DNA of 64,000 nucleotides from Alphaproteobacteria bacterium (lineage in GTDB: Bacteria > Pseudomonadota > Alphaproteobacteria > SP197), in assembly GCA_964291415.2 (NCBI GenBank), contig OZ219918.1, forward strand, positions 224,001 through 288,000, read 5' to 3'. Positions 1,589 through 64,000 of this stretch are shown one piece after another. Made by a program: the position numbers and the translations under genes. Under the pieces are notes generated by a model that saw nothing but the letters and a program-made list of their open reading frames with translations, did not search any database and was not told where the DNA came from. Each line of letters begins with the position of its first letter. Positions within the stretch are counted from its first letter, which is position 1.

Positions 1589-3471
1589 GCGGGCGTGCCG
1601 TCGCGGCGCTCCTCGTGGCGTTTCTTGCCATGCCGGCCCTGGCGTCCGAGGTGCCCTGGCTTGCGGAACGGGTCGCTGCCGGCGATCTGCCGCCCCTTCG
1701 CGAGCGTCTGCCGGATGACCCTCTCGTCGTCGACGACGGCCGGGAAACCGGCGACTACGGCGGCGACTGGAACATGCTGATCGCCCGCAGCAAGGACACG
1801 CGTATTCTCGCGGTCTTCGGCTACGCCCGGCTCGTCGGATACGACGCAACCTTCACCCTGGTGCCGGATCTCCTCGAATCCTTCACTGTCGAGGACGGGC
1901 GCATCTTCACCTTCCGCCTGCGCCGCGGCCACCGATGGTCGGACGGTCATCCCTTCACCTCCGAGGATTTTCGCTACTGGTGGGAGGATGTTGCGGGCAA
2001 CCCGGAGCTCTCTCCGTCGGGCCCGCCGACTGTCATGCGCGCCGGCGGCGCCTTGCCTGTCTTCGAAGTCATCGGCGACGAGACCGTGCGCTACACCTGG
2101 CCCGCTCCCAACCCCGATTTCCTGCCGGCGCTGGCCGGCGCGGCGCCGCTCTTCATCTACCGTCCGGCGCACTACATGAAGCAGTTCCACGTGGATCATG
2201 GTGATGTCGAGGCGATTGCGCGCCAGGCCGCCGAGGCCGGCAAGCCCGGCTGGGCATCGCTCCACAACGCCCACGACAACCTCTATCGCTTCGACAATCC
2301 CGACCTTCCCACGCTGCAGCCATGGGCCATCACCAACGAGGCGCCGGCGCAGCGGTTCATCGCCGAGCGCAATCCCTTCTTTCACAAGGTGGACGCCCGG
2401 GGCCGGCAGCTCCCCTACATCGACCGCGTCGTCATGACCGTCGTCGACAGCAAGCTCATCCCCCTCAAGACGTGGGCGGGAGAAGCCGACCTTCAGGTAC
2501 GGGGACTTGCCTTCAACGACTACACCTTCCTGAAGGAAGGAGAGGAGCACAACGACTACCGGGTGCGGCTGTGGCAGACGGCGAGAGGAAGCCAGCTCGC
2601 GCTCTATCCCAATCTCAACGTGGCCGATCCGGTGTGGCGCACGGTGCTGCGGGACCTCCGCTTCCGGCGGGCCCTTTCGCTGGCCATCAACCGCCGGGAG
2701 ATCAACCAGGTCATCTACTTCGGTCTCGGCATCGAAGGGCAGAACACGGTTCTTCCCGCATCGCCTCTCCACCGCTCCGAGTTCCGGGATGCATGGGCCC
2801 GGTTCGATCTCGAGGAGGCCAACCGGCTGCTCGACGACATGGGGCTCGTCGACGACGACGGCATGCGTCTGCTTCCCGATGGCAGACCGCTGGAAGTCAT
2901 CGTCGAGACCGCGGGCGAGAACCCCGAAGAAACCGACATACTCGAACTGATCCACGATTCATGGGCAGCGGCCGGAATCAAGCTCTATCCCAAGCCCCTG
3001 CAGCGCGAGGTCCTGCGCAACCGCATATTCGCCGGAAAGACCGTGATGGCCATGTGGTTCGGCAACGAGAACGGCGTGCCCGCGGCCGACATGAGCCCCG
3101 GCGAGTTCGCCCCCACCACCCAGCAGCTGCTGATGTGGCCGCGGTGGGGCCAGTACCACGAAACCGGAGGCGCCGCCGGGGAGCCCATCGACATGGAGGC
3201 GCCGCGCCGCCTCATGGATCTCTATCTGGCCTGGCGCGCCAGCCGGACCTCCGACGAGCGCCGGAGCATCTGGGACGAGATGCTGGAGATCTACTGCGAC
3301 GGCGTCTACTCCATCGGTCTGGTTGCCGGAATCCTCCAGCCCCTAGCCGTCTCGAACCGGATGAGGAACGTGCCGGAGGAAGCCATCTACAACTGGGATC
3401 CCGGAGCCCAGCTCGGCGTGTGGCAACCCGACACGTTCTTCTTCGTCGATGGCGACGACGGCCGGCCATGA
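1585..3471 (+). CDS. ABC transporter substrate-binding protein, family 5
   Basis: ATGA overlap with upstream stop; signal peptide [20 protein letters not shown]; LPPLRERLP, FTFRLRRGHRWSDGHPFTSED and LPYIDRV motifs. Confidence 0.93.
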   Translation: MSGRAVAALLVAFLAMPALASEVPWLAERVAAGDLPPLRERLPDDPLVVDDGRETGDYGGDWNMLIARSKDTRILAVFGYARLVGYDATFTLVPDLLESFTVEDGRIFTFRLRRGHRWSDGHPFTSEDFRYWWEDVAGNPELSPSGPPTVMRAGGALPVFEVIGDETVRYTWPAPNPDFLPALAGAAPLFIYRPAHYMKQFHVDHGDVEAIARQAAEAGKPGWASLHNAHDNLYRFDNPDLPTLQPWAITNEAPAQRFIAERNPFFHKVDARGRQLPYIDRVVMTVVDSKLIPLKTWAGEADLQVRGLAFNDYTFLKEGEEHNDYRVRLWQTARGSQLALYPNLNVADPVWRTVLRDLRFRRALSLAINRREINQVIYFGLGIEGQNTVLPASPLHRSEFRDAWARFDLEEANRLLDDMGLVDDDGMRLLPDGRPLEVIVETAGENPEETDILELIHDSWAAAGIKLYPKPLQREVLRNRIFAGKTVMAMWFGNENGVPAADMSPGEFAPTTQQLLMWPRWGQYHETGGAAGEPIDMEAPRRLMDLYLAWRASRTSDERRSIWDEMLEIYCDGVYSIGLVAGILQPLAVSNRMRNVPEEAIYNWDPGAQLGVWQPDTFFFVDGDDGRP

Positions 3472-4466
3472 TCGCCTTCACCGTCCACCGGCTCATCATC
3501 ATGGTGCCGACGCTGATCGGCATCAGCCTCATCACCTTCATCATCATCCAGCTGCCGCCCGGCGACTTCCTGTCGACCATGATCGCCGAATGCGAGGCCC
3601 AGGGTGAATCGGGCTGCATGGAACAGATCGGCATCTACCGCCAGGAGTTCGGCCTCGACCGGCCCATGTGGCAGCAGTACGTGATCTGGGTCGCCGACCT
3701 TGTCCAGGGCGACATGGGAATCAGCTTCGAATACAACAAGCCGGTGGCCGAGGTCATAGGCGAGAGTCTCTGGCTCACCATCATTGTTTCCGGCGCGACC
3801 ATCATCTTCACCTGGGTCGTCGCCTTTCCCATCGGCATCTACTCGGCGACCCACCAGTACTCCTGGGGCGATCACGGTCTCACCTTCCTCGGATTTCTGG
3901 GTCTGGCCACGCCCAATTTCCTGCTGGCCCTGGTGCTGCTGTTCCTCGGCAACGTGTGGTTCGGGACGTCGATCGGCGGCCTCATGGATCCCGTCTACAT
4001 CGATCAGCCGTGGACCTGGGGCAAGTTCCTCTCGATCCTGGAACACCTGTGGATTCCGGTGGTGGTGATCGGCACCTCCGGCACGGCGGGCATGATCCGC
4101 CGCCTGCGCGCCAATCTGCTTGACGAACTCCACAAACAGTACGTCGTCACGGCGAAGGCGAAGGGGCTGCATCCGACGAGAGTGCTCGTCCGCTACCCGC
4201 TGCGCATGGCCCTCAATCCGTTCATCGCGGATATCGGCAACCTGCTTCCCCAGGTCATCTCCGGAGCGGTCATCGTGTCGGTGGTGCTGTCGCTCCCCAC
4301 CACCGGCCCCATTCTGCTGCGTGCCCTGCAGACCCAGGACATGTATCTCGCCGGCTCGTTCCTGATGTGCCTGGCACTGCTGACCGTCCTCGGGGTGCTG
4401 GTCTCCGATCTGCTGCTGGCGCTGCTCGATCCGCGCATCCGGCTGGGCGCGAGCGGGAACCGGTGA
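3468..4466 (+). CDS. Peptide ABC transporter permease (OppB/DppB-like)
   Basis: ATGA overlap; IIQLPPGD N-terminus, hydrophobic helices, YVVTAKAKGL EAA-loop, DPRIR C-terminus. Confidence 0.95.
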   Translation: MIAFTVHRLIIMVPTLIGISLITFIIIQLPPGDFLSTMIAECEAQGESGCMEQIGIYRQEFGLDRPMWQQYVIWVADLVQGDMGISFEYNKPVAEVIGESLWLTIIVSGATIIFTWVVAFPIGIYSATHQYSWGDHGLTFLGFLGLATPNFLLALVLLFLGNVWFGTSIGGLMDPVYIDQPWTWGKFLSILEHLWIPVVVIGTSGTAGMIRRLRANLLDELHKQYVVTAKAKGLHPTRVLVRYPLRMALNPFIADIGNLLPQVISGAVIVSVVLSLPTTGPILLRALQTQDMYLAGSFLMCLALLTVLGVLVSDLLLALLDPRIRLGASGNR

Positions 4467-12097: not shown

Positions 12098-12127
12098 TTG
12101 ACCGGACGCCAGTGCCGCATTCATAGT
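12098..12127 (+). promoter_or_regulatory. Candidate sigma70 promoter for the mini GIY-YIG/SIR2 operon
   Basis: TTGACC-N18-CATAGT, followed by AAGGAGG RBS before ATG 12150. Confidence 0.35.
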
Positions 12128-12149
12128 GCTGGGCCAAGGAGGACGCGTC

Positions 12150-12362
12150 ATGGTGGCCGAGACTACCTTCAGATACCGTTTCAAGGTGGGAGGCAGGGTC
12201 GTGCACTGCGGTTTCACGATCGACTTGGCGCGCCGCGAGCAAGAGCACCGCCGCCGGTGGCCGACGGGCCATATCGAACAGGTGGGTGGGCCGACCACGC
12301 GCGAAGAGGCGTGGAAGTGGGAGAGGCAGCAAGCCGAACAGCGGTTCCGTTCCGCGTCCTGA
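12150..12362 (+). CDS. 70-aa protein resembling a minimal GIY-YIG domain
   Basis: Strong RBS; FRY..VHCGFTIDLARREQEH..TREEAWKWE matches the GIY-YIG layout (beta hairpin, Arg helix, distal Glu) with YIG read as HCG; stop overlaps the next start (TGATG). Confidence 0.7.
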   Translation: MVAETTFRYRFKVGGRVVHCGFTIDLARREQEHRRRWPTGHIEQVGGPTTREEAWKWERQQAEQRFRSAS

Positions 12363-13456
12363 TGGCTTCACAGGAGCCCTCTGCGGGGCAGGCGGCCACA
12401 GCACAAAGCGTCCCCCGCAATCATGTTGTTGTCACCGGAGCCGGCTTCAGCCGCGCCTTGGTCCCCGGCGCGCCGCTGCTCGTTGACAATTTCAACAACG
12501 ATGCCCTTGAAAACAAAGTCCGAGGTCTGCCCAATGCGAGCCGGTTGCTGGAGTGGGAACGAAGCCTCCATCCGAGCGGTTACATCGATATTGAGCGTTT
12601 GATGACGCGACTCGATGCCTTGATGCCGTACGACTATGCCGAGAACGCTGGCAACGCAGCGAACGAATATGGATACCTCCTTTCGGAGCTGAAGAGAACG
12701 TTCGTTGACCGTCTCCATGAAGCTCGAAATGGGGACATCCATCGCGAAGACCTGAAACGCTTCGCGAACTTCTGTGAGACGCATCGCTGCTGCTGCATCA
12801 CGTTCAACTACGACGACTTCCTCGACGAGGCGCTGGCGCAGACCAAGAGTTGGAACCCTTACTGGGGTTACGGATTCTTCTGCCAGTCATCACTGGACAC
12901 CATGGCTAGTTTCGACGAACTGGAACGTAACTCGGCTTTGCGGCTGCTCAAGCTTCACGGATCGATCAATTGGCGGCCGAAGCTCGGCTATGCGAACCCG
13001 GTGGCAATCGACACCATCACGCATCATCACGAGTGGTCCAACAACAGTCTCCGGTATCCGCAAGTAGCCGGGAACCTCGAACCCGAACCGGTCATGGTCC
13101 CGCCTGTCCTGTCAAAGTCCAGCCTCGTCGAACAACCGGTCCTTCGGCTTGTCTGGTCGCATGCGCTTGCAAGCCTGGAGATAGCTCACGAAGTCACGTT
13201 CATTGGCTATTCGTTTCCGGCGACGGACGTGGCCGCAAGGACCTTGTTTACCGAAGCGTTGAAGGACCTGCCAGCAGAGGACATAAATGTTGTCAATCTA
13301 AGCCGCGACAAATCAGAGGCTGAAACCACGCGGGAGCGATATCGATCCGTGCTCGGCGATATCCCCGATGAGCAGTTTCATTTCAACGGCGCTCTGGAGT
13401 GGATAAGAGGCCTGCCGTCCAACCATCGGGGTAACGAATTGTTCAACCGGGGCTAG
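12362..13456 (+). CDS. SIR2-like domain protein (NADase-type sirtuin)
   Basis: VVVTGAGFS, ITFNYD, LLKLHGSINW, FIGYSFPATD motifs. Confidence 0.9.
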   Translation: MASQEPSAGQAATAQSVPRNHVVVTGAGFSRALVPGAPLLVDNFNNDALENKVRGLPNASRLLEWERSLHPSGYIDIERLMTRLDALMPYDYAENAGNAANEYGYLLSELKRTFVDRLHEARNGDIHREDLKRFANFCETHRCCCITFNYDDFLDEALAQTKSWNPYWGYGFFCQSSLDTMASFDELERNSALRLLKLHGSINWRPKLGYANPVAIDTITHHHEWSNNSLRYPQVAGNLEPEPVMVPPVLSKSSLVEQPVLRLVWSHALASLEIAHEVTFIGYSFPATDVAARTLFTEALKDLPAEDINVVNLSRDKSEAETTRERYRSVLGDIPDEQFHFNGALEWIRGLPSNHRGNELFNRG

Positions 13457-38478: not shown

Positions 38479-39186
38479 TCAACCCCCTTCTCCTGTTGGA
38501 TGAAGACTCTCCAACCGGTTGAGCCAGTCGGAAAAGTGAGGGCATTGCGTGCACATGCGCTGCAGGCCGATTTCCAGTGCGGCGAGAATACCCAGAAGTG
38601 GTTTCTCATATCCGTCAATCAGAGCCATGATCCGCTTCGACGGCGCTCCTTCCGGCGACTCATCGATCTCTTCCGGCGTCGGGAAGGTGTTCCTGATGTC
38701 CTGCAACCGCGGAGTCAGGTCCGGCCGCTCGATTCCAGTGCCGAACCTTTCGCAGTCGCTGAACAGCAGCGCCTCGTACTCGTGCATCATCACATACGGA
38801 ACGAATCGGCGCGTGTCGAAGCCGCCGCCCATTTCTCCGGCGATGTCTGCCAACAGGGCGTCCTGAATCGACGAGGCTCTGTCGGCAAAGGGACGCTGTG
38901 ACGCTTCCGCACGTCCCGGCCACGCTCCACCACCGCTCTGCGGAAGGCCGTAGTAATCCACCATCGTGGTGACGATGCGGTCCTGATCCTCGTGGAGATG
39001 GCGCACGATGTCCCGTCGCGCAGAGGGCCAGCCTCTGATGCCCCCTCGGTGGTCGCGCTGGCGCGCGTTTCCCATCAACCGCGCCCCGACCAACGAAAAG
39101 CCGCGGTCATAGAGGTGCGGCGCGAGAACCTCGTTGACGAAACTCTCTTCAGTCTGACCTTCGACGTGGACGAGGAGACGTGTCAT
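38479..39186 (-). CDS. DUF4276 family (TOPRIM-like) protein
   Basis: VEGQTEE, TTMVDYYGLP, HEYEALLFSD, PEEID..PSKRI, CPHFSDWL. Confidence 0.88.
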   Translation of the reverse strand: MTRLLVHVEGQTEESFVNEVLAPHLYDRGFSLVGARLMGNARQRDHRGGIRGWPSARRDIVRHLHEDQDRIVTTMVDYYGLPQSGGGAWPGRAEASQRPFADRASSIQDALLADIAGEMGGGFDTRRFVPYVMMHEYEALLFSDCERFGTGIERPDLTPRLQDIRNTFPTPEEIDESPEGAPSKRIMALIDGYEKPLLGILAALEIGLQRMCTQCPHFSDWLNRLESLHPTGEGG

Positions 39187-40220
39187 GCCTCGGGGGTGGG
39201 ACGCCCACCGAATTCATTCTTCTCCCAAAGTTGCCCGAGGCTGTACTCGTTCAGCCAGTCCCTCAGCCTCTCCGGTTCCAGCCTCGTCAGCTTGGTCGCC
39301 CCGTCCTCCCGATCAGCCACAAGCACGTCTTCCGGGTCGAAGTGATCGAGCAACAAGGGCGACTGTGTGGCGAGAATGACCTGAGTCTCTACGGATGCTT
39401 GTTTGACGAGCGATGCCAGAAGCGTGACTGCGTAGGGGTGCAAGCCGAGTTCCGGTTCGTCCATGAGGATGACGGACGGGCGGAGCGTCGCGGGCAGGAA
39501 CAGCAGCGTCGCGAGGGCGATGAATCTCAAGGTTCCGTCAGAAAGGGACGACGCGTCGAAATAGGCGTCCGACTTCCGATGCCGCCATTCAAGACGGATG
39601 GTGTCTTCATTCAACGCCAAGGGTTCCAGTTCAAAATCGTCGAAGAACGGTGCAGCGAGCCGCACCGTGCGTCGGATCATGCGGTACGCATCGGGGTGCT
39701 TTTGGCGCAGGCGATACAGAACGGCGGCGACGTTCGATCCATCCGCCTTCAGGTGGCGGTTGTCGTTCAGATCGGTCGTTTTCTTCATCGGAGACAACGG
39801 GCCGGTATCCTGAAAATGGTAGCAACGGAACTGACGGACTACGGCGAGTAGAGTCTTGGGAAAACTCCAGTTCTGGTCCCCCACAACAGGAAGCCTTCGT
39901 GCAACAAGCCTGTCGCCTGCAACTGCAATCAACTCTTGTCTGTACACCCTATGTATCTCATTGAATTTTATTTCGAAACTGATTCTCTCTGTGTTCTTGG
40001 CTCCAAAGTGCAGGATCTTGTCCGCTCCACCCGAGCGTACGACATGGTCGTCCACTTCACTGTCGTCACGAAGGGTGGTGCGCAACAGCGCCATGGCGCC
40101 GAAGACATTCGATTTGCCCGATCCGTTGGGTCCGATCAGCACGTTGATCCGGCCGAGACGCAATTCGAGACACCTGATGCTCTTGAAGCCTTCGATGGTG
40201 ATTCGGTCGAGCGCGGGCAT
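39183..40220 (-). CDS. AAA_21/ABC-type ATPase coupled to DUF4276
   Basis: GFKSI, GPNGSGKSN, YHF, LSDGTLR, DEPELGLHP, TQS; ATGA overlap with the downstream gene. Confidence 0.92.
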   Translation of the reverse strand: MPALDRITIEGFKSIRCLELRLGRINVLIGPNGSGKSNVFGAMALLRTTLRDDSEVDDHVVRSGGADKILHFGAKNTERISFEIKFNEIHRVYRQELIAVAGDRLVARRLPVVGDQNWSFPKTLLAVVRQFRCYHFQDTGPLSPMKKTTDLNDNRHLKADGSNVAAVLYRLRQKHPDAYRMIRRTVRLAAPFFDDFELEPLALNEDTIRLEWRHRKSDAYFDASSLSDGTLRFIALATLLFLPATLRPSVILMDEPELGLHPYAVTLLASLVKQASVETQVILATQSPLLLDHFDPEDVLVADREDGATKLTRLEPERLRDWLNEYSLGQLWEKNEFGGRPTPEA

Positions 40221-60151: not shown

Positions 60152-61188
60152 CTACTTCATGACGTTCGTCCACACCTGGTCGTAGAGCCTCACGACATCG
60201 TCTTCGCAGGCAGGCACGAACTCGGGATCCGGCGTTCCTTCCGGAGCGTTGAGTTCCGGCGCCGTGGCGAGTTCGGGATCGAAGTATTGCGCCGCGCCCA
60301 TGATGCCCCCGTTCACCCCGACATAGTTCGATTCAAGGGCGATGTTCTCCGGCACCATCATGAAGTCCATGAAGATCATGGCATTCTCGATGTTCTCGGC
60401 GCCCCTGGGCACGGCCAGGTTGTCCATCCACCCGGTATAGCCCTCCCGGGGATGCGCAAACGCCACTGACGGCTTTTCAGCGCGTGTGCGGATGGCGTAT
60501 CCGTCCCAGTTCATCGTCGCATCGACCTCACCCGAGACGATCAGTTCCTTCGGGTCCATGGAGTAGGAGCGCACCCATTCCTTTTGCCGCAGAAGCAGTT
60601 CCTGAACCTGGCGCATTTCGTCCGGATTTGAGTTGCAGCGCGGGAACCCGAGATAGCGCAAGGCCATGTTGATGACCTCCACGGAGTCCTGGAACATGTT
60701 GATGCGGCCCTTGAGCACGTCCGGTGGATCGAAGAGGACGGCCAGCGTGTGGATGTCGCCGTCAAAGACGTCCGTGTTCACGTTGAAGCTTGTGGTGCCC
60801 CACATCCAGGGAATGGAGTAGTGGCGGCCTGGATCCCAGTAGACATCGACCCAGCGTGGCTCGACGTTCTTGAAGTTGGGGAGTTCGTTGGGCTCGACAC
60901 GCAGAAGCAGATCCTCCTTGATCAGGATCTCGACGAGATAGTCGCCCGGCACGATGATGTCATAGCCGGTCGCTCCGGCCATCATCTTGGCGAGCAGGTC
61001 TTCGTTGCTTGCGAACGTATCGATGTTGACCGTGATCCCGGTCTCGGCTTCGAACTTCTCGATGAGCTCGGGACTGGTGTAGTCCGCCCATGTGTAGAAG
61101 TTGACCTCTCCCTCGGCGCTGGCCCGGGGACGCCGAGCGAGGCGACCAGCAAGATGGCCCCCGTCACGCCAAGCAATTGTCTCAACAT
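60152..61188 (-). CDS. Polyamine ABC transporter substrate-binding protein (PotD/PotF-like), frameshift near 61124
   Basis: GGAGG RBS and signal peptide in one frame, then VNFYTWADY..FEAETGI..SNE, GYDIIVP, PWMWGTT, W.DNLAVP; one extra G restores it. Confidence 0.88.
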
Positions 61189-61626
61189 GATTGACCTCCC
61201 TTTGAATACGATTTGGATACAGACTGTAACCTTAACCCGGTCCGGGAGAAAGGCCAGTCGGGACAGTTTGACCTTTCAACGCGCAAGGCCCCGGGAACGA
61301 TGGTTTCGGCCGGGCTGGCCCTTGCGCCGAAGTCCGAGCCGGACAAGCCCCCTCGAAAGGGTCAGGCCGCCTTCGTTCTGGATTCTTTCGAGGTCGAGGA
61401 CGAATGGTTCGCGCTCGAGTTGGTCGCCTTCCAGGTGTTGTCCGGCGAAGGACCGCCTTCCGCGATCGCCGCGGAAGCAATCGAGACGATCAGGCGCTTG
61501 CGACTCAATGATGAGGAATGCTGTGGTGCGTGCGCCGAATACGCCGAGGATTACTGGCGCGAGGAAATCACAATCGCCGATGTGCGAAAAAATGGGGGAT
61601 TGTATACGCAACTTGACAGAATCGAC

Positions 61627-61655
61627 TTGACATCCAATGGTGTTATCGATATGAA
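61627..61655 (+). promoter_or_regulatory. Candidate sigma70 promoter of tnpB
   Basis: TTGACA-N17-TATGAA in the left end; GGAG RBS before ATG 61697. Confidence 0.45.
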
Positions 61656-61696
61656 TTCGTGTGGTAAATCAGTGCTCGCAATACCGGAGTCCCCGC

Positions 61697-62896
61697 ATGT
61701 CGTCCTCTGTCACCTATCGACAGATCACCTTTCGCCTGCTGCCCGAGAAGCGCAGCACCTGGCGGCGGCTGGAGGCCATGCTCGACACGCAGCGCTGTCT
61801 CTACAACGCGGCGCTGGAAGAACGGATCGACTGCTACCGCAAGACCGGCAAGTCGCTCACCTACTTCGATCAGGCGAAGTCCCTGACCCTTTGCCGCAAG
61901 GCGCTGCCGGACATGGCAGCGGTGCCGGTGGCCATTCAGCGCGGGACGCTCAAGCGCCTCGATCATGCCTTCAAGGGCTTCTTCCAGCGGGTGAAGCAGG
62001 GTGGGGCCGGGTTCCCCCGGTTCCAGGGACGCCGGCACTTCAACAGCCTTTCCGTGGTCTCCGGCGTCAGGGTCGAGGGCAGTCGCCTGCGCATCCCCGG
62101 CCTGGGCTGGCTGACCATCCGCCGCCGGGGCGGCAATCCCTGGCCGCAGGGCACGCCGGTGAGTGCGGTCCTCAAGCGCGAGGAGGGACGCTGGAAGGCT
62201 GTGGTGTGCCATGCGGTGTCGCTGCCGGAAGGGGACGACAACGGCCATGCCGTCGGCGTGGACATGAATGCGGGCCAGGTGGCGACCTCGGACGGGGAGA
62301 TCCTGCGCCTGGAGAGGAGCCGTCGTCTCGAGGCCCGTGCCCGGCGCTACGCCAAGCAGCTGGCGCGGCAGCGCCGTGGCAGCAGGCGGCGGGAGAAGAC
62401 GCGGCGGCGTCTGGCGAAGACCACCCGGCACATGGCCATGAAGCGCCATGACTGGCAGCACCACGTCAGCCGCCGGTTGGCGGATGCGGCGGGAACGGTG
62501 GTGGTCGAGGATCTCAAGGTCCGCACCATGACCCGCAGCGCCAGGGGCACGAAGGAGGAGCCGGGACGTCACGTGCGCTCCAAGGCGGGTCTCAACCGTG
62601 TCATCCTGGAGACGGGCTGGTCGTCGTTCCGGAGAATGCTGGACTACAAGGTTCACCGCGTCATCGCGGTGAACCCGGCCTACAGCAGCCAGACCTGTGC
62701 AGCGTGCGGCGTCACGAGCGCCCAATCACGCAGGACGCGGGACCTGTTTCAATGCGTGGCGTGCGGCCATGCGGATCACGCCGACCTCAATGCAGCGGCG
62801 AACATTCTGGCCTCGGGGACTGAGGCATCTGCGCGGGGAGGTTGCCGGGTTGCCGGGCCTGTGAACCGCGAAATCGATCAGAGGATGGCAGCATGA
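61697..62896 (+). CDS. tnpB: RNA-guided endonuclease TnpB (399 aa)
   Basis: FRLLP..RCLYNAAL N-terminus, GFPRF, RuvC D (GVDMN), E (VEDL), D (HADLNAAANI), zinc finger CAAC..CVAC. Confidence 0.95.
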   Translation: MSSSVTYRQITFRLLPEKRSTWRRLEAMLDTQRCLYNAALEERIDCYRKTGKSLTYFDQAKSLTLCRKALPDMAAVPVAIQRGTLKRLDHAFKGFFQRVKQGGAGFPRFQGRRHFNSLSVVSGVRVEGSRLRIPGLGWLTIRRRGGNPWPQGTPVSAVLKREEGRWKAVVCHAVSLPEGDDNGHAVGVDMNAGQVATSDGEILRLERSRRLEARARRYAKQLARQRRGSRRREKTRRRLAKTTRHMAMKRHDWQHHVSRRLADAAGTVVVEDLKVRTMTRSARGTKEEPGRHVRSKAGLNRVILETGWSSFRRMLDYKVHRVIAVNPAYSSQTCAACGVTSAQSRRTRDLFQCVACGHADHADLNAAANILASGTEASARGGCRVAGPVNREIDQRMAA

Positions 62897-62943
62897 CGCT
62901 GTCAACTTCTCGATATAAGTCCCAAAAAATGCTCCTTCGTTGC
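62790..62943 (+). ncRNA. Putative omegaRNA (reRNA) scaffold overlapping the tnpB 3' end, plus flanking guide
   Basis: Only 27 nt between stop and right end; hairpin GCCTCGG-GGA-CTGAGGC (62810-62826) and CGCGG/CCGCG pairing (62832-62870); boundaries inferred from TnpB biology. Confidence 0.5.
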
Positions 62944-63149
62944 GAGGAAACCGGACGTTCCAGGACGGCCCTAAGCCTCTTGATCACTGGCGATTTCCCT
63001 AGGCGTTTTGTCACAAACGCGAAGTGAGGATAGAGAACAGATGTCCGCTTTCTTGAAACACTCTCGGAAGAAATAGCTGCCGTCCGCATCGAAAGCTTCG
63101 GTGAGCGATCCGGGTTGGAGGCCACAACTCAAGCCGCGTGTCAGCGGTG

Positions 63150-63989
63150 TCAGCGGAACATCAAGGAGCCGCTGCGTTGTTCGATGGCGTCGGAGACGAC
63201 GATGCCACCGCGAAAACGGTCATATGTAGTATCCAGATAGTGGTACTGGAGCGCTTTCAACTGGCCGCCATAGCGCTGCCGAAGGCCTCCTGCGGCGGGC
63301 TGTACGTGAACATTGCTCACGTGGCCTGTGCAGTAGGCGTGGCAGGCAACGGGATAGAGCAGCGCGGAGCACAGGATATCGCAGACTTGGAGGCCGGCGT
63401 GGTTGTCGCTGTGGCCGAAGGTTGGAAGTTCGACGGTCCGAGGGTACGCCCGGGCAGTTTGGCTGAACTTCTGGGTGAAGATCGAGTGGGACACCTTGAC
63501 GTTCTTGAACTTGTTGCGGCTGTCGGCGATGCATGCGCCGACCTCGTTCACGTGGGACAGATAGTGGTCGAAGTAGGTGCAGATGCCTTGGATCGAAGCC
63601 GTGTAAACGGACGTGGGAACGAAGGGCATTCCGATGCCCTTCACGCTGATGCGCGCGACCAACCGAACGTCGTGGCGCCACAGCATTCCGAAAATGCGGT
63701 CCAGGAATCCGACTGCGTGACGTCGCTGACGAGCGTTGCCGCGTAACGCGTTGTTCCGGATATCCGCCCCCTTGATCTCCGGCAGGATCCTGTCAAGGAA
63801 TCTGGCCGATGGGTACGGCAAGTTGGGGAAGTACCGATACTTCAGGTCGAGGAAATCAGCGGTAAAGGCGAGGAGGTTTGCGGCTTCCGCGAAGAGTCCA
63901 CCGACGACCAGGACGGGTTGGTCGTTAGGCTGCGGCGGGTCGGACAGCGGTCCGAGGTCTCCCGCTTCGTCGATAAAGCAGATTCTCAT
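63150..63989 (-). CDS. DUF3800 domain-containing protein
   Basis: FIDEAGD N-terminus, EIKG, and GLQVCDIL (QxxD) motif. Confidence 0.85.
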   Translation of the reverse strand: MRICFIDEAGDLGPLSDPPQPNDQPVLVVGGLFAEAANLLAFTADFLDLKYRYFPNLPYPSARFLDRILPEIKGADIRNNALRGNARQRRHAVGFLDRIFGMLWRHDVRLVARISVKGIGMPFVPTSVYTASIQGICTYFDHYLSHVNEVGACIADSRNKFKNVKVSHSIFTQKFSQTARAYPRTVELPTFGHSDNHAGLQVCDILCSALLYPVACHAYCTGHVSNVHVQPAAGGLRQRYGGQLKALQYHYLDTTYDRFRGGIVVSDAIEQRSGSLMFR

Positions 63990-64000
63990 TCGGTGCCAAA

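Follow-up and report, generated by a model that had tools for sequence, protein, structure and literature searches.

Can an RNA-guided nuclease of the TnpB family retain its guide and its target-adjacent motif (TAM) when it resides on a transposon that duplicates its target site? TnpB biology and engineering are built on IS200/IS605 and IS607 elements, in which the target motif of the transposase doubles as a 4–5-nt TAM. The question is raised by a tnpB element in a 64,000-nt stretch of an alphaproteobacterial genome (Alphaproteobacteria bacterium, GTDB SP197; assembly GCA_964291415.2, contig OZ219918.1, positions 224,001 to 288,000). We call this whole stretch the window, and all coordinates refer to it unless another locus is named. 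An initial annotation, made from the sequence alone, noted that a guide RNA (omegaRNA) running through the right end of this element would start its guide with the target site duplication (TSD), and saw a puzzle in the lack of a fixed TAM. The arrangement is real, but it is not unprecedented. According to the accessible text of two reports, six branches of DDE-associated TnpBs all have inverted terminal repeats, with solo TnpBs also found inside such ends (PMC10691335), and the guide RNAs of Fanzors traverse an inverted repeat and a TSD (PMC10711439). Here, we describe a family of such elements in which the TSD is a true and variable 8-bp duplication, and in which the base that precedes this duplication on the left side is a nearly invariant G. 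With about even confidence, we read the element as a non-autonomous DDE-type transposon with IS1595/Merlin-like ends that is moved in trans and whose TnpB uses G, or purine-N-G (RNG), as its TAM.

Anatomy of the element and its target site duplication

The element occupies positions 61595..62923 (1,329 bp, as read from the sequence) and is bounded by imperfect terminal inverted repeats of 25 nt (GGG...CCC), which match at 17 of 25 positions (Table 1). These repeats align without a gap once the TSD is taken as 8 bp, AAAAAATG, instead of the 7 bp initially proposed. Other parts of the initial annotation were accurate. GTGCG (61582-61586) adjoins the left TSD copy on its 5' side, GTCCC (62919-62923) adjoins the right copy, and the tnpB stop codon (TGA, 62894-62896) is 27 nt away from the right end at 62923. 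This stop codon was also said to lie within the extended inverted repeat. The description fits three related copies (L007, L022 and L023), where the repeat reaches over the stop codon, but not the window copy, where the stop sits 2 nt inward of the recognisable 25-nt right repeat. An intact tnpB is the only gene between the two ends and the only copy of tnpB in the window. The right repeat also occurs once in the 64 kb at up to 3 mismatches, compared with 0 expected occurrences.

The encoded protein scores 206.3 bits against the NCBIfam model guided_TnpB (NF040570, cut-off 100), and the Pfam families OrfB_IS605 (PF01385) and Cas12f1-like_TNB (PF07282) match above their cut-offs. In an alignment of 35 sequences, the RuvC residues D189 and E271 are invariant and D363 is nearly so (conserved in at least 90%). 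The same alignment shows three invariant cysteines in the CxxC...CxxC zinc finger (C337, C353 and C356) and a fourth, C334, that is conserved in at least 90% of the sequences. The best natural match among solved structures is ISDra2 TnpB (8h1j, 8bf8), which aligns to residues 8-374 with E ~5e-32; one AI-designed nuclease ranks above it.

Relatives of this protein are abundant. Of 8,000 candidates scored in a protein search, 2,225 were relatives with E ≤ 1e-20. When one genome per species was scanned, 601 stretches matched and 574 of them encode a relative; the best 79 loci were used for the comparisons described here. For 30 loci, both ends could be placed with an nhmmer profile built from 22 end pairs. 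Among full-length copies, similarity in the three closest (89–93% protein identity) starts and stops at the two boundaries of the window element, and mean pairwise identity among the four close copies is ~0.9 within the element compared with 0.32 and 0.41 beyond its ends. The two TSD copies match at 8/8 positions in 15 of the 30 loci with both ends, at 7/8 in 5, at 6/8 in 1 and at 5 or fewer in 9. The 8-mers themselves vary from copy to copy (CAAGAAAG, ATCCCTTG, AAAGGGTA and CTTTCTTT are examples). Since they differ, the repeated octamer is a true TSD and not a fixed end sequence as in IS200/IS605 elements. Several assemblies contain many copies: by our own tally, ~12 of the best 79 loci come from one assembly and 6 from another. 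Decayed copies also exist, with stop codons in 9 of 46 translated locus rows.

Inverted-repeat ends combined with an 8-bp TSD point to a DDE-type transposase acting in trans rather than to the enzymes of IS200/IS605 or IS607 elements. IS200/IS605 elements have neither terminal inverted repeats nor a TSD; they carry subterminal hairpins and insert 3' of a fixed 4–5-nt motif. The 25-nt inverted repeats and the variable 8-bp TSD rule out a member of this family that carries tnpB only (IS1341 group). IS607 elements encode a serine recombinase TnpA, lack inverted repeats and a TSD, and end in GG. This class was rejected as well: the element has no second gene, it has both inverted repeats and a TSD, and its TnpB scores 95 bits against the NCBIfam model IS607_TnpB, which is below the cut-off of 350.

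The ends (terminal GG, ~25-bp inverted repeat, 8-bp TSD) resemble those of the IS1595/Merlin group. IS1595 family members usually have 8-bp TSDs and Merlin inverted repeats begin with GG, as stated in the accessible text of PMC8101967. Both features, the 8-bp TSD and inverted repeats starting with GG, are present here, and our assignment to IS1595/Merlin is tentative. GGGAATTAT and GGGACTTAT also fit a putative ISfinder consensus of the ISNwi1 subgroup (GGnnatTAT, with an 8-bp direct repeat). The element differs from IS1595/Merlin by the lack of a DDE_Tnp_IS1595 gene: no such transposase sharing these ends was found in the element, among 52 open reading frames (ORFs) of the window or in the DNA flanking the 79 loci.

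Predicted guide RNA and the base in front of the duplication

The RNA fold of 62806-62923 contains three hairpins (H1-H3) with a stability of -49.6 kcal/mol (z = -2.34), which was equalled by 6 of 200 shuffled sequences. A consensus structure derived from 29 relatives retains H1, the outer stem of H2 and the inner hairpin of H2. It comprises 13 pairs, 6 of which show compensatory changes, and these changes occur in two hairpins. With a possible pseudoknot included, the structure has a covariation score of 0.246 compared with 0.098 for shuffles; none of the 500 shuffles attained it, and all controls with slid partners fell below it as well. In this structure 92.7% of cells are paired, whereas sliding the partners lowers the proportion to 32–45%. 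This pseudoknot would connect the H1 loop (62816-62821, GGGACT) with the last six nucleotides of the element (AGTCCC). It is paired in 88.5% of cells and is compatible with the alignment, yet its covariation is too low for a demonstrated feature.

Across the 29 relatives, the sequence is conserved exactly as far as the terminal CCC, beyond which the bases vary. Within the gene, the four close copies are most alike at third codon positions in 62791-62850, where identity reaches 0.967. The right inverted repeat makes up H3 and the 3' tail of the predicted scaffold. Because conserved structure and conserved sequence both reach the terminal CCC and stop there, the omegaRNA scaffold probably includes this repeat. 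Since the TSD is true and variable, a guide produced by read-through would begin with the TSD, which is the most likely arrangement as judged from these alignments. On these points the initial annotation stands: it had noted hairpins in the last tnpB codons and proposed that the omegaRNA traverses the right inverted repeat, with the TSD at the start of its guide.

These features suggest the following mechanism. The transposon would carry just tnpB and its guide RNA, and would depend on a DDE-type cut-or-copy-and-paste transposase acting in trans. The last ~115 nt of the element, in which the end of tnpB is followed by the right inverted repeat, would form the scaffold. Transcription leaving the element would then add the guide, starting with the 8-bp TSD and reading on into the flanking DNA to the right. 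An empty site would have the left flank in front of the sequence matching this guide; this flank ends in G, usually as purine-N-G, and would provide the TAM. In the occupied site the same sequence would be preceded by the CCC of the element, so that the element would not cut itself. At the left junction of the occupied site only the 8 nucleotides of the TSD would match the guide. The initial annotation had also considered a special mechanism for telling self from non-self. Such a mechanism would not be needed, because the candidate motif differs from the element's own CCC end.

The evidence for this motif comes from a sequence logo of the bases 5' of the TSD across copies, an analysis that had been suggested together with the initial annotation. 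Ends were placed in two ways, either by the profile, with one end shifted by 1 nt within a G run and one end added by hand, or by conservative snapping to GG/CC. The logo shows a one-sided G. With profile placement, 41 of 43 left flanks have G as the base immediately 5' of the TSD; conservative placement gives 38 G, 4 A, 1 T and no C among the 43. Among copies with a TSD match of at least 7/8, G occupies position -1 in 21/21 cases (binomial p = 4e-11, background 0.32), position -3 is a purine in 20/21 and position -4 is G in 12/21. The mirror position after the right TSD is C in just 6/21. Within the TSD, position 1 is A or C in 19/21 copies and position 2 is A or T in 21/21, and the last two positions are biased to the complementary bases, A/T followed by mostly G/T. 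This edge bias is roughly what is expected of a symmetric transposase, whereas the flanking G is not mirrored. The expectation that a TSD-making transposase would supply no fixed motif was thus not borne out. A relaxed or short TAM may now be given the concrete form of RNG or G, at the position where a TAM is conventionally found.

In the one testable case, L002, the G is part of the target DNA. The insertion in L002 splits a MoCoBD_1 domain, with the right fragment extending to profile position 162 and the left fragment covering 206-241. The two halves are in frame only if the empty site contained G plus 8 nt. This result rules out for L002 that the G is added at insertion, a possibility prompted by the shorter junction of P0121, an uninterrupted relative of the ORF that the window element disrupts (see below). 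A cruder test of the origin of G, based on ORF lengths at 21 reconstructed sites, was too noisy in DNA of 64% G+C.

The G also recurs outside the main family. A TnpB clade from Acidimicrobiia (L057 2944-4194, L077 2922-4185 and L078 2956-4211) is ~40% identical in protein sequence and has a different inverted repeat (GGTAGTGG... / GGTAGTGGG...). Its members have an 8-bp TSD (8/8, 6/8 and 6/8) and carry G at -1 in 3/3 copies.

Table 1. Coordinates of the tnpB element, its predicted RNA features and the interrupted host gene in the window
Feature	Position	Strand	Remarks
tnpB, 399 aa	61697..62896	+	RuvC triad and zinc finger intact
Left terminal inverted repeat	61595..61619	+	starts GGGGATT; nhmmer profile of ends; conservation among close copies begins here
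Right terminal inverted repeat	62899..62923	+	ends AAGTCCC; nhmmer profile of ends
Left TSD copy, 8 bp, AAAAAATG	61587..61594	.	identical to 62924-62931
Right TSD copy, 8 bp, AAAAAATG	62924..62931	.	identical to 61587-61594
Non-coding leader, left repeat to tnpB start	61620..61696	+	conserved in six aligned left ends (window, L001-L003, L011, L065)
Candidate TAM GCG (purine at -3, any base at -2, G at -1)	61584..61586	+	adjoins left TSD on 5' side
Predicted omegaRNA scaffold	62806..62923	+	overlaps last 30 codons and right inverted repeat
Predicted hairpin H1	62810-14/62822-26	+	loop GGGGACT
Predicted hairpin H2	62832-36/62866-70	+	inner hairpin 62845-48/62853-56
Predicted hairpin H3	62873-62914	+	stop codon in its loop
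Predicted single-stranded 9-nt tail	62915-62923	+	after H3
Putative guide by read-through (TSD and flank), 16-20 nt	62924..62943	+	predicted
Interrupted host ORF, left part	61300..61593	+	C-terminal fragment, PtuB-like (Septu) nuclease; PADLOC PtuB E = 2.3e-14

TnpB or transposase as the source of the G

Several observations weigh against a TnpB that reads RNG or G on an element moved in trans. To our knowledge, a motif of 1–3 nt is far below the TAM length of any TnpB. Under conservative end placement, 5 of the 43 left flanks have no G; a recognisable TSD is absent in 9 of the 30 copies; and the junction of the one empty allele seen, P0121, has 1 nt less than reconstructed. As for the guide RNA, the pseudoknot that would set the 3' edge of the scaffold barely covaries, with one position unpaired in 10 of 29 relatives, and a search of 61000-64000 against Rfam found no family at E ≤ 1. 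Simple consensus scans found no promoter or terminator in 61500-63150, including a sigma-70-type promoter in the leader (61620..61696). As for the mobilising enzyme, the element contains no transposase gene, a Pfam search found no transposase among 52 of the 55 main ORFs in the window, and the end profile matched only ends of tnpB elements in the window and the ~3-kb flanks of the 79 loci. The IS1595 assignment draws on end features that are common to other families and on the putative subgroup consensus. Furthermore, a target preference exerted by the transposase at the right end, and not a TAM, could account for the asymmetric G. Finally, in Fanzors the TSD is assigned to the scaffold and not to the guide, according to the accessible text of PMC10711439 and PMC13565253.

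If the G is indeed an asymmetric target preference of the transposase, TnpB would have another TAM or none, or would no longer work in homing. The asymmetry would then come from the two repeats, which mismatch at 8 of 25 positions, and DDE chemistry would place the attack by the 3' OH of the right end exactly at the top-strand G^M bond (M, A or C). Frameshifted and decayed copies also keep the G, as an insertion preference predicts rather than later selection. On the other hand, TSD positions 1-2 and 7-8 are roughly symmetric, which fits a dimeric transposase, and the flanking base alone is asymmetric. The G also recurs in a clade with an unrelated inverted repeat but a related TnpB. We consider it unlikely that transposase preference is the whole explanation. 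Since a canonical TAM is also set by the target choice of the transposase, this preference and an RNG or G TAM can hold together. Either TnpB or the transposase may impose the G, and the two are not exclusive. A stricter proposal is that TnpB reads only the G (purine-N-G) as its TAM and that the TSD provides the first 8 guide nucleotides, which would make this protein a nearly TAM-free miniature nuclease. This proposal is possible but doubtful. If it is true, the nuclease and not the transposase would be the common factor that fixes site and orientation of settlement, given that the one-sided G occurs in two TnpB clades with unrelated inverted repeats. It would also imply functional coupling of an RNA-guided nuclease with a TSD-making transposase in bacteria.

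The arrangement of Fanzors leads to a different assignment of the same bases. The 3' TSD would belong to the scaffold or form an ignored linker, the guide would begin at 62932, the 5' TSD with its A/T-A/T-G/T end would be the TAM, and the G would be irrelevant. Such an arrangement is published for Fanzor1 and Fanzor2* (accessible text of PMC10711439 and PMC13565253), and TSD positions 6-8 of the present family lean to W-W-K: position 6 is A/T in 36/43 copies, position 7 is A/T in 39/43 and position 8 is G in 24/43. These three positions together hold ~1.3 bits, compared with 1.5–1.6 bits for the single G. The TSD of Fanzors is short and nearly fixed, whereas here it is 8 bp long and variable, and a variable 8-mer cannot make a fixed scaffold contact. 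Length and variability of the TSD thus argue against a Fanzor-like arrangement, to which we give a small chance.

Finally, TnpB could move the element alone or with host factors, so that no separate transposase would be required. tnpB is the sole gene between the ends of a multi-copy family, and neither the window nor the ~3-kb flanks of the 79 loci yielded a partner. We consider this explanation highly improbable. We know of no precedent for strand transfer by a TnpB, and the search for a partner covered just these 3-kb flanks and one window. No other motif was found at -40 to -5 or +1 to +40 after dropping 5 loci with ambiguous ends. We therefore rejected a TSD resulting from a staggered cut by TnpB itself, as there is no conserved motif 5–40 nt from the TSD on either side to fit it. 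The published explanation is that solo TnpBs are moved in trans (accessible text of PMC10691335).

The element is non-autonomous, since it contains a single gene, no transposase is encoded among the 52 window ORFs, no other ends in the window or the locus flanks matched the profile and the longer copies are products of insertion. Two loci were examined as possible autonomous forms. L024 (914-4202; 3,289 bp, TSD ATTGCAAA, 8/8) owes its extra length to a group II intron, whose reverse transcriptase/maturase lies in the left part of the element (1295-2773); its tnpB is frameshifted. L043 is a mosaic that includes an ORF without any Pfam family.

Host site, related copies and significance

The ORF interrupted by the window element has an uninterrupted relative, P0121 (98% identity), which leads from the left-flank sequence straight on to the residues encoded by the right flank. 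An allele without the element therefore exists. The initial annotation had reconstructed the empty junction from the window alone, and P0121 differs from this reconstruction. It reads ...ADV-QEMPL-RCEE..., where the window encodes ...ADV-RKN on the left and KMLL-RCEE on the right (61582-61594, 62924-62945). In addition to the missing nucleotide there are 2–3 further base differences, all within ~12 nt of the insertion point, and the 95 residues preceding the junction are identical to the window. The P0121 junction may represent a scar, an escape allele or simply a polymorphism. The PADLOC PtuB profile scores 52.0 and 51.4 bits on two reading frames of the P0121 tail, and does not discriminate the ancestral frame. 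A BLASTP search with the 22-aa tail gave no match.

The PtuB-like remnant lacks its N-terminal half and has no PtuA alongside. A DUF3800 gene adjoins it (63150-63989, minus strand), and the region around the element looks like a decaying defence or variable patch. Elsewhere in the window, an adjacent gene pair (38482-40220, minus strand) matches the PADLOC candidate defence system HEC-01, with an AAA_21 ATPase as component A (E = 1.5e-122) and a DUF4276 protein as component B (E = 9.6e-73). A further gene (12098-13453, plus strand) has a weak SIR2_2 domain, with weak matches to defence-type SIR2 models (E ~1e-6).

Among the related copies, a tree of 39 rows, from which 9 rows with stop codons had been dropped, recovers the main inverted-repeat clade (23 rows) with full support. 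Two gammaproteobacterial copies with the same repeat type, L052 and L054, group with the copy L080 from a Bosea plasmid, and the Acidimicrobiia clade is sister to Deinococcus-type copies. This topology suggests more than one exchange between end types, although long branches make this unsure. L080 (Bosea sp. plasmid NZ_AP022849.1, ~2900-4290) encodes a 38% identical TnpB between IS605-like hairpin ends. It lies within a nucleoside monophosphate kinase gene, and the same 9-mer, CTTTGTTAG, stands at its left flank and its right end.

Searches of annotated plasmids with the window element gave only 4 short matches by blastn (67-79% identity), none by tblastn at E ≤ 1e-40 and none above 38% identity at E ≤ 1e-10; a 116-nt left-end query gave chance matches only. 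Two copies, L008 (2866-2873) and L039 (2852-2859), have the identical TSD CAATGAAG in unrelated flanks and in different bacterial families. This fits a marked target preference of the form G, insertion point, C/A, A, A/T and so on. In L009 (1522-1529, 2923-2930), the left 8-mer is nearly the reverse complement of the right 8-mer, and in L013 the inverted repeat continues ~10 nt into both flanks. These inverted flanks may result from recombination between copies or from insertion into a palindrome.

How does this family compare with known systems? ISDra2 TnpB (IS200/IS605; 8H1J, 8BF8, 8EXA) belongs to the same protein family and has the same domain order. In both cases the scaffold, predicted here, shares sequence with the 3' part of the gene and extends as far as the right end of the element, and the TAM, a candidate here, closes the left flank. 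ISDra2 differs in lacking both inverted repeats and a TSD; its transposase is a Y1 TnpA and its TAM the 5-nt TTGAT (accessible text of PMC13565253), whereas the present element has inverted repeats, an 8-bp TSD, no TnpA and a motif of 1–3 nt at most. The logic by which the end of the left flank serves as TAM would thus be that of IS200/IS605 elements, with a much shorter motif.

Further parallels are found among the DDE-associated TnpBs. As far as the accessible text of Altae-Tran et al. 2023 (PMC10691335) goes, these share the inverted repeats, a tnpB whose 3' end is no more than 250 bp away from the end of the transposon, and solo copies that are presumed to move in trans. The partners named in the accessible text of PMC13565253 are IS630, IS1031 and 'ISL2', not IS1595, and neither of the two texts, as accessible, describes a TSD logo or a TAM for such elements. 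Fanzor1 and Fanzor2* are alike in that their guide RNA runs through the right inverted repeat and beyond the TSD (accessible text of PMC10711439). In Fanzors the TSD is part of the scaffold and the 5' TSD part of the TAM, while the present family combines a long, variable TSD with a conserved base outside the duplication. Neither this family nor an IS1595-type association nor a one-base TAM turned up in our literature search, although the supplements of PMC10691335 may list the family. A 2026 review states, in its accessible text, that prokaryotic OMEGA systems beyond IS200/IS605 and IS607 await characterisation (PMC13565253).

The locus thus represents a multi-copy bacterial family in which an ISDra2-like TnpB resides on a TSD-making inverted-repeat element, and in which a single G is the sole fixed base beside the sequence that would match the guide. 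If TnpB reads this G, the family would show how the guide and TAM logic persists when the nuclease switches transposon type. It would also provide a compact nuclease with a very short TAM, and a bacterial counterpart to the Fanzor situation that is testable in E. coli. If the G belongs to the transposase, the family would still be a clear example of oriented target preference in a DDE-type element.

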